A DNA stretch of 64,000 bases, from assembly GCA_030141605.1 (NCBI GenBank), contig JAQGDQ010000139.1:372001-436000 (forward strand), written 5' to 3'. Source of the DNA: Tubiluchus corallicola (Eukaryota > Animalia > Priapulida). The notes beneath the pieces are model-generated. The model was not told the origin of the DNA. It searched no databases and was given only the letters and a program-made list of their open reading frames with translations. Both the position numbers and the translations under genes were made by a program. Of this stretch, positions 3,401-6,400 are shown piece by piece; position 1 is the first letter of the stretch; every line of letters begins with the position of its first letter.

Positions 3401-6400
3401 AAAACTTAGAAAGGATTCTCATTAATCATGCATCTAATGTATTCACAAACTTTATACAAGAATGACAATATGCAAGCAAATTGAACATATTTTTTACTAA
3501 ACAAGGCAAAATTAAGACATAGTAGTACTATTATACAGAATAGACAACAGTAAAAAAGAATTTGTGTGAAGTACATAAGAGCAGTTAAACTATCACAAAA
3601 TGTTACTATTTAGTTTAGGAGGTATTAAATAATTTTTCGGTACTTACTATTCGCAGTAAATGAGATAAACTTTACTATGTTTTTCTATGTTTATTTGTTC
3701 ACTAACCTACTTAATTTTTGCAAAAAAAGTACAAAGGTAAATTAGTTGCTAGACTTTAAATGCACTATGATAGAAAACGTAATTTGTCATTAATAAACGA
3801 CGAATCACGCCAAGATGTACTATTTGCAAAAAAACTATCTTTGACTGATTCATTTATAGTCACACGATAATTGTAATTTTAAACTTTTCAAATTCTAAAA
3901 TCAGCAACTGCTTTTTGTTTTTACGTCAGTTATGAGACTAACCACCATCTCATTTCAAAGTAAAACCAATAAATGCACAAAAGCAATACTAAATTAACCT
4001 CCTTTGGGACTCGATCTCAGGTCTTCTGCTTTCTAGGTAGCCATACTGTTATGTAACTAAATAGCACACATACTCACTGAACCTTAGAACATTAATGTCT
4101 GTGACAATAACAGAAACAGTCAAAGTAATGTCCTCGCTTAAAAGAATAAAACAAGCAAGAATATTTTTCTCAGTTGAATAAATTTAATTTACTTTTTTAT
4201 TTTAGCCAGACCCCAAACTGACATGGCCTCTTTAGAGCTGATATTTGTAAACAAGAACAAACAGCTTACCGTAGCAACGCCGCCAGGGCGTACATAAGCA
4301 GCATGCATCCGTGCTCCACATACACGTTCAGAAAACTCAAATAACTGTAAGTATTAGGCTAATAGTATTAAGAAGAATACAACAGTGACAGAGAACACAT
4401 CTATCTACAGATGCTAAAATTACTGAAAAATGTGAAGCATACAACATCAAAAGTGTAGTGCAAATGAGAATTTGTCAATCAATAACCACGAAAACAGCTT
4501 CAAACAAACAGCAGTTTTTTTACACTTGTCAACTGGATAAACGCTTCGTTTTCAACTGTTTACGACTTGTAACACAGCTATTTTCATGATCATTGATGTA
4601 GGCTACAAGGGCATTTTAGTTGCCATGACAACAACCTCTGAGGGGAGATCATGTGATACCTGACTGACACCGCCAGGGCGAACGTAAGCTGTGTGCATTC
4701 GGGCACCAGATACACGCTCAGAAAACTCAAACATCTGAAATGTGTTGCACAACATGAAACCATTTAAAACAAAGCCGTCTTTGCTCTACAAAACAACAGT
4801 TTACAGTACCCTGCAATTTAATTAAATGTAATACTGACAGGAATTATACACAGTGACTATTTGAAGCTAATAATGGAATATAATGAGAGAGAAAAATGAA
4901 GATTATTGCAAACTAGTATTTTTGTAGGAAAGTAGGGAACGAACACTTCCATTGTTACAAAAAGACACAGAAAATCTGGGTTGAAACAAAACTGCTAAAT
5001 AATCCATCATGTACTTTACTTTCTCATCACATCATTTTGTTAGTTTAACAGTTTTTGCATTTATATTCTTATAAATACACTTAATAAAAATAGAACTTTA
5101 AGCTAAATGTCTGGTTCACACAAAAACAGTTTTTTAAACTCCAATCTTCAGCAAATACAGCACAACCAGTTTTGTTTCTTCGTCTTTCTACTTAAGCCAA
5201 AACTATCAGATTGCCTGCATTTTCAATTATCTCTGGTTGCTAAAATTATGTTAATATTGCTCCATTATTTTAAATAGTGTAGTACTGTGACATTCTGTGC
5301 TTTTGTGTTAAGATTTTCATCTGCTATGAACTCTGTGTTTGTGCATTTTGGTATTTCATGTGGTTTTTAGGGAATATCATTATTGTCAAATCTATTAATT
5401 CATTATAGATTATCACTATGTTAAAATTATCTTATCTCTGCTTCATGCTTTTCTACATTTTCGACTATTCTTAACTCTTCCGTATGCTTCCAAATAACAC
5501 TTGGTTCCAAGTGCTGAAATATGCAGTGTTAGCTAAAAAGTCAAGCAGAGTTGTTTTCATACCTTTTCCCTTTCTTCAAACATCCAGAAAAACGGAGTCA
5601 TGGCGCCGACATCAAGAGCGTGAGTTGTTATGCCCATCAAATGATTTGCTATGCGAGTAAGTTCAGCCTGGAGTGCTAAGCAAAGTTAAAATAGTATTTT
5701 ACGTAGTATTGTTTAATGTTAATCCTGAGCACATACATTCTTTATAATACAGGGTGTGTCATGAGTCACTCACTAATTTGGTTTTCAATTTTGTTTGCTA
5801 CTAATCAACTAACGACATTTCTCTTACGGTAAACTTTTACTAGTGGCAGTGGTAGTAGTAGCAGTAGGCGTAGCAATAGTGGTAGTTATAGTACTAATGC
5901 CCTTCGTTATGTTTTAAAAAAACTTGACCATCATAAAATAAATAAATATTGAGGGTAGATAATTAGTGCTAGGTCAAAGTAAAAACATACACTATTCCAG
6001 GCAAATAAGTCTGAAGTGTCGTATTGTTTTTTCTGCTAAGATGCTGAATGCTGATCTAGAGCAGAGGTGTAAAATCATATGGGTTACTCATTTGCAAATT
6101 CATACAACATGCAGTGTCTTTTTGCGAGGCGGCTATAAGAGAGCAAAGTATACACCACCAAGTTAAGAGACCTACCAACACTAAAAATGTGGAAGAGGAA
6201 TGTATTTGCTTCTGTTACTCCCAAAATGTTAGTCAATGTCGACAGAATAAGAATATGGTATGCATAAAATGTGGTTTGGATCCTTTCAAAAAAAGGTTTT
6301 GCTTACTTTCAGGTGAACTAGTAAATTCGCAGCAGATATATTAATCAAAATTCTTGGGATTCATAGACTCAGCATCCAAATTGCTAAGGTTTTGAAATAA

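Follow-up and report, generated by a model that had tools for sequence, protein, structure and literature searches.

The gene for NDUFS2, the 49-kDa core subunit of complex I, carries in the priapulid Tubiluchus corallicola a twin exon that is real, old and selected: two neighbouring copies, here called A and B, encode two versions of one 25-residue segment, which includes the histidine at iron-sulfur cluster N2. It is likely that both copies are used, either the one or the other, and, with somewhat less confidence, B is regarded as a still functional but rarer alternative that replaces A, the two resulting forms being near-equivalent with little functional difference. The gene lies on the minus strand at 425-14069 of the window, i.e. 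of the whole stretch of 64,000 nucleotides that was analysed, and its eleven coding-exon positions are all open and in phase (Table 1). Counting only one of the two copies, the reading frame comprises 406 codons up to exon 11, which corresponds to residue 406 of the NDUFS2 of Priapulus caudatus (P0085, XP_014672416.1); the left part of the gene is cut by the window edge, and the last exons lie beyond it. As for the identity of the gene (PF00346), NDUFS2 chains are the best matches, with 88% to P. caudatus. In the constitutive exons 3-11, 271 of 307 residues match the P. caudatus protein, and 15 other comparison proteins (12 named animals and 3 others) match the same 307 residues at 222-246.

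Table 1. NDUFS2 features in the window, listed in the direction of the gene (X2, RNA-like run of a close relative)
Feature	Position	Strand	Basis or remark
First coding exon, predicted	13969..14069	-	Has ATG and likely encodes a mitochondrial targeting peptide; frame open, GT donor, phase agrees with exon 2
Exon 2	10646..10752	-	tblastn to homologue residues 37-67; phases fit
Exon 3	8466..8575	-	X2 contig piece, joint 8466>7280
Exon 4	7200..7280	-	X2 contig joints
Exon 5	6562..6682	-	X2 contig joints
Exon 6, constitutive	5563..5675	-	X2 joints; translation
Exon 7, copy A (human 210-234)	4660..4734	-	Seen in one X2 contig (2 of 76 letters differ) through joints 5563>4734 and 4659>2812
A-B intron, 315 nt	4345..4659	-	Weak donor GTATCA
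Exon 7, copy B, likely mutually exclusive alternative	4270..4344	-	CAG acceptor, donor GTAAGC; dN/dS 0.16 against A; drift simulation
Exon 8, constitutive	2650..2813	-	X2 joints
Exon 9	1161..1280	-	X2 piece 1164-1279; phases
Exon 10	785..914	-	tblastn; phases
Exon 11	425..520	-	tblastn; gene runs on past the left window edge

Elsewhere in the window, 34116-35552 (minus strand) holds an intronless-looking open reading frame for an elongation factor Tu, likely mitochondrial (Pfam GTP_EFTU with domains 2 and 3), in a region that is otherwise rich in introns, and 52430-54427 (plus) holds a homologue of 2',5'-phosphodiesterase 12 (PDE12) in a single reading frame, the best match of which, in a library with one protein per 50% cluster, is an octopus protein at 46%. 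At 57766-59700 (plus), a POU domain and a homeodomain are followed by about 500 residues that have no Pfam match. Two retrotransposon copies of the LINE-like type, both with a reverse transcriptase, are found at 22872-24641 (plus) and 47493-50717 (minus), the latter of which also has an endonuclease reading frame and is split across frames, while the former lies between the sulfotransferase gene exons (PF00685) at 21613-21879 and 27675-28058 (plus).

Copies A and B are each 75 nt long with phase 0 at both ends, have a CAG acceptor and a GT donor, and are spaced by 315 nt. The coordinates and the anatomy, described in an earlier note on this DNA as two phase-0 exons with good AG/GT sites, were exact on recheck, and a recount of the differences gave the same numbers: 18 of the 75 nucleotides differ (57/75 identical), nine codons differ synonymously only, five amino acids are replaced, among them those at 224 (Thr/Ala) and 218 (Ser/Cys), and there are no indels. 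The flanking introns, in which no likeness had been evident before, align with scores that stay within the range of shuffles. A degenerate pattern of the intron-flanked exon has exactly two matches in the 64-kb window, namely A and B, and none of 100 shuffles reaches two. Equal length, equal phase, homology and canonical splice sites, by which membership in tandem-duplicated exon pairs is judged, are all found in A and B. A decayed third copy about 78 nt before B was considered and rejected, as 131/500 and 584/1000 shuffles score as high. Read-through of the donor of A (4642-4659, minus strand) gives VSHDLP, which resembles the spliced junction VSQ/DLP and may be a chance likeness.

In the alignment, the segment is placed at human 210-232, in agreement with the numbering of 210-234 that had been assigned to it, and its histidine is human 223, Yarrowia 226 and residue 190 in the mature mammalian numbering. 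Both copies keep Arg228 and Pro229, and both have Ser at 214, where most homologues have Tyr214, a point that was absent from the earlier note. Tandem exon pairs as such are already known, and a duplicated NDUFS2 exon pair is new as far as the literature search reaches: the full-text search found no report of NDUFS2 exons that are duplicated or used in a mutually exclusive way, which agrees with the earlier statement that none are described, genome-wide exon tables in supplements being a place that could list a case. The accessible part of PMC8659336 holds nothing on NDUFS2.

RNA-like evidence comes from the assembled contigs of one run (X2) from a close relative that is known here from the contig alone, and such assembly drops rare isoforms. 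One X2 contig of 889 nt has consecutive joints over exons 3, 4, 5, 6, A, 8 and 9, and behind position 8575 it has a loose end which, in a comparison by eye, resembles the 3' end of exon 2 with few differences. Window and X2 differ in 42 of 780 aligned exon letters (~95% identical), and 24 of the 25 listed differences are synonymous. Running from exon 6 to A to exon 8, the contig leaves out 828 nt ahead of A and 1846 nt behind it, with GT-AG ends; both junctions that had been proposed for checking, 5563>4734 and the one from A to exon 8 (4659>2812), are thus present in this single contig. In the transcript of the relative, A is spliced in without B. The copy seen spliced is the one that carries the derived Thr224, which also had not been part of the earlier note. 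A transcript containing B was not seen in the assembled contigs, from which rare variants are lost, and exon B is covered by no contig of X1 or X2; of the proposed exclusive use, the A-only path has been found, and its counterpart with B has not been seen in these contigs. The DNA-like X1 contig equals 4365-5541 with 0 differences and ends 21 nt short of B, which confirms the DNA of A. Over 5512-5700, the depth of the X1 contigs shows an approximately hundredfold peak at exon 6 that falls on both sides, as in an enrichment library and not as in whole-genome reads.

How old the duplication is can be estimated from the two copies themselves. By the method of Nei and Gojobori, A and B have 10.5 synonymous differences in 19.5 sites and 7.5 non-synonymous differences in 55.5 sites, which corresponds to pS 0.54 (bootstrap 95% interval 0.31-0.78), pN 0.135 (0.04-0.25), dS 0.95, dN 0.15 and a dN/dS of ~0.16, with a Fisher p of 0.0016 over 25 codons. 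Between the window and X2, dS is about 0.24-0.28 (~0.13 per lineage) and pS about 0.22, and as the pS of the two copies is higher than this, the duplication appears to predate the split from the X2 lineage. Since a low A/B ratio could also result from selection acting on A only, the drift of B was tested directly. Each of the 25 residues of B is found in the corresponding column of at least one of 66 distinct homologue segments, and the seven columns without variation in this set are intact; the set of tolerated residues was gathered partly with B as the query. In 20,000 simulated runs, B was counted as intact if it stayed within the tolerated set and kept its AG/GT, and indels were left out, which makes the test conservative. 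After free drift of 0.02 substitutions per site, 38% of the runs still had an intact B; the share fell to 6% at 0.06, 0.3% at 0.13 and 0/20,000 at 0.2, which gives p ~0.003 for B having drifted freely since the X2 split. B was probably still constrained after that split, and it appears to be kept by selection at the protein level. Purifying selection at the protein level on both copies of an old duplication, as the earlier note had read from the pattern of changes, is supported by the dN/dS of the 25 codons, its p value and the drift simulation.

It is rather unlikely that B worked until recently and is now silenced and skipped, with too little time having passed for decay. That A alone is seen in RNA (the X2 contig) and in the P. 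caudatus protein would agree with such a loss, as would the simulation, in which B still looks intact in at least 15% of the runs at up to 0.04 substitutions per site, but out of a history of ~0.47 substitutions per site, the loss would have to fall into no more than the last ~0.06, and both splice sites of B are intact and look strong. The donor GTAAGC of B looks stronger than the donor GTATCA of A, and branch-like YTRAY motifs stand at -24 and -10 of the acceptor of B, placed similarly to those of exons 2, 6 and 8, which are at -8 to -16. The absence of B from the contigs carries no weight in this matter, since assembled contigs lose minor isoforms. B differs from the P. caudatus-like state by four changes and A by one, which could reflect a relaxed constraint on B.

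The P. caudatus protein also permits a tentative reconstruction of the history of the two copies. It has Met210, Ser214, Ser218, Ala224, Asn233 and Gln234 (a similar fragment, P0080, has Ser233), matches A in 23/25 and B in 21/25 residues, and shares Ser214 and Ala181 with the window; its record holds one A-like protein in a cluster of one with no isoform label. With this protein as the outgroup, Ser214 would predate the duplication, A would have gained Thr224, and B would have gained Leu210, Cys218, Ala233 and Thr234, so the duplication may be placed after the Tyr214 to Ser change of this lineage and before the split of the X2 lineage. Among the stored full-length proteins, the rows of which are not independent, Ser214 is paired with Ala, Gly or Gln at 181 in 37/37 cases, and Tyr214 is paired with Leu, Met or Ile at 181 in 90/92 stored proteins; the 181/214 pairing may be a co-adapted helix contact that has arisen in priapulids, nematodes, a crinoid and others.

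In other animals, this 75-nt exon has the same borders and is found between AG and GT in 51 loci on metagenome contigs, many of which are near-duplicates and none of which is priapulid-like. A second copy scoring at least 40 is found in 0/51 of these intron-flanked loci, and each of the 21 loci that span both neighbouring exons has exactly one copy, so that no conservation of the pair outside is seen in these non-priapulid loci. A B-directed search gave 52 proteins, among which a B-like segment is the recorded form in several lineages and B in priapulid-like flanks does not occur, and a query with exon 8 gave no relative above 70%. Within the protein and metagenome collections searched, the twin exon thus appears to be lineage-restricted. 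A quick NDUFS2 tree, from which the window protein was left out and in which 13 of 39 inner branches are open, was not used for placement. Among the animal contigs, 28 with introns carry a divergent single-copy NDUFS2 with an A-like exon, in which residue 214 is Ser, Ala, Asn or Thr, and residue 224 is Thr, Ser, Cys or Ala.

The segment is next to cluster N2, as both the alignment and the literature indicate and as the earlier note had stated. His223 (H226 in Yarrowia) forms a hydrogen bond with N2 and sets its potential, with little effect on the capacity of the enzyme according to the available text of PMC8042128, and residue 224 adjoins this histidine. The earlier note had also placed the segment next to the quinone-reduction site. 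NDUFS2 residues around a quinone-site inhibitor are 59, 108, 152, 156, 160, 167, 168, 371, 422, 424 and 425 in mouse (PMC7567858, as far as accessible), and judged by this residue list, not by distances, the named residues of the quinone pocket are all outside the segment (mature 177-201). It is exon 6 that encodes the pocket residues M185, T189, D193, F200 and F201 (human numbers), along with Ala181, and these pocket residues are canonical and constitutive. Disease sites had been assigned to positions 224, 228 and 229, with A224V being what we take to be an NDUFS2 variant. For two of them this is borne out by PMC8615828, which names R228Q and P229Q among the disease variants of NDUFS2, and A224V appears in the accessible table of that article in the row of NDUFA8 only.

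It is possible, though doubtful, that the exclusive use of A and B is adaptive, in that oxygen or sulfide shifts their ratio and thereby retunes N2 or the enzyme for an anaerobic, possibly rhodoquinone-based respiration. The position of 224 beside the histidine that tunes the N2 potential (PMC8042128, accessible text) would suit such a role, but activity depends little on the H226 contact according to the same source, Thr224 is found in fungi too, and the quinone-pocket residues lie outside the segment (PMC7567858, residue list). A precedent can be seen in coq-2, the exons 6a and 6e of which are mutually exclusive, have 134 nt, have been shown by RNA, and remodel the active site (Tan et al. 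2020, PMC7434440); exclusive coq-2 exons recur in helminths, annelids and molluscs according to the text available of that article, in which priapulids are not mentioned. As with coq-2, a tandem duplication has given a mitochondrial, quinone-related enzyme two internal exons of equal length, and the animals concerned are ones that encounter low oxygen. In contrast to coq-2, the NDUFS2 exons preserve the frame, only one of them has been seen in RNA, the residues they exchange stay clear of the quinone pocket, and the pair is known from a single lineage. Long-term anaerobiosis of a priapulid is the subject of a reference title cited in PMC11053104 and would speak for the adaptive role, but in the full-text literature no paper was found that brings together priapulids and rhodoquinone.

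The duplicated NDUFS2 of nematodes and Fasciola (PMC6859908, PMC11265314, both as far as accessible) is likewise a case of two versions of one core subunit, and Ascaris and the filariae share with A and B the columns 214, 218, 224, 233 and 234, but there whole genes with separate promoters are duplicated, whereas here one exon is doubled. In the accessible alignment of PMC6859908, the NDUF2 paralogues of Onchocerca volvulus differ at 210, 214, 218, 224, 227 and 234, and those of Ascaris at 214, 217, 224, 227, 233 and 234. The 2.2 copies of Ascaris, Brugia and Onchocerca have the beta-branched Val or Ile at 224 together with Ser218, like the Thr224/Ser218 of A, and the 2.1 copies of O. volvulus and B. 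malayi have Cys218 and a small residue at 224, like B. This parallel of clade III paralogues with A and B is suggestive and would favour an adaptive switch, but the columns in question are those that are variable in the segment anyway. In the supplementary alignment of PMC6859908 (16 rows), gas-1 and nduf-2.2 of Caenorhabditis elegans do not differ at any of the 25 residues, the rescue by nduf-2.2 needed no rhodoquinone (PMC11265314, accessible text), and Otero et al. state that no common evolutionary event ties NDUFS2 duplications to rhodoquinone (PMC6859908, accessible text). The splice switch between ubiquinone and rhodoquinone that the earlier note had put forward is weakened by the location of the pocket residues and by these nematode data. 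Tyr214 to Ser was also considered as a rhodoquinone marker and rejected, as Trichuris and three flatworm rows keep Tyr. That priapulids switch the N2-adjacent segment by splicing as oxygen falls, which would be a splice-level version of the Ascaris and filarial NDUFS2 pairs, must be rated as improbable.

For the likely either-or use of A and B, there is the question of how exclusivity could be ensured. Both exons preserve the frame whether they are doubled or skipped, and nonsense-mediated decay therefore cannot police double inclusion or double skipping. A distal branch point for steric exclusion was not found, with AGs being at -16 and -58 of the acceptor of B, and neither of the donors, GTATCA in A and GTAAGC in B, is of the U12 type, as judged by what we take to be the U12 consensus. 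Among 126 pairs of inverted repeats, none stands out near the splice sites, and competing RNA duplexes are no stronger than those of shuffled sequences in a crude comparison, in which 9, 2 and 10 of 15 shuffles were as strong. Regulated splice-site choice would thus be the default for exclusivity. In the AlphaFold model of the P. caudatus protein, which has a mean pLDDT of 78.6, the segment comprises the last part of the core helix 199-220, a loop and two short strands, with a block pLDDT of 71-91, and because it is in the folded core of this model, a doubled or deleted segment is unlikely to be tolerated.

An inclusion of A and B together in some or all transcripts, resulting in a 25-residue duplication, is very improbable. 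The 315-nt intron begins with GT and ends with AG, its length is sufficient for splicing, and the frame would be kept, but the X2 contig goes from A directly to exon 8, which argues against a constant co-inclusion, the motif occurs twice in 0/193 of the proteins listed, and the modelled position in the folded core would also oppose it. The least probable of all explanations is that the second copy arose through gene conversion or is an assembly artefact in which haplotypes were merged: exon B itself is uncovered by X1 and X2 contigs, but 24% of the sites differ between the copies, whose flanks cannot be aligned, and this is far beyond the allelic level (X1 contigs have 0-1 differences per piece), the exact match of the X1 contig links A to the upstream part of the acceptor region of B, and gene conversion would homogenise synonymous sites, contrary to the pS of 0.54.

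Taken as a course of events, the favoured explanation of two alternatively used copies would begin with a tandem doubling of the 75-nt NDUFS2 exon beside N2. A would be included on its own, and B would more rarely take its place in some tissue or stage, with regulated splice-site choice enforcing the exclusivity. The result would be two near-equivalent forms whose only difference is the packing around N2, the quinone pocket being the same in both. Both copies may have been retained mainly via a partitioned use, any tuning effect being small.

Worms are known to have isoforms of complex I core subunits that stem from duplications of whole genes, and what these isoforms are for is unsettled (PMC6859908, PMC11265314, accessible parts). 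In the case of A and B, a 25-residue segment is swapped in an otherwise identical protein, with five positions differing around the N2 histidine, which makes the pair a clean natural experiment. If the improbable oxygen switch were true, it would be an independent arrival at residues 218, 224, 233 and 234, and complex I would have its first case of a catalytic core subunit with a splice switch tied to anaerobic respiration. If B is not used or does not respond to oxygen, the pair would be an ordinary lineage-specific twin exon, and if B is used and oxygen-responsive, splicing would be tied to the catalytic core of respiration in animals of oxygen-poor mud.
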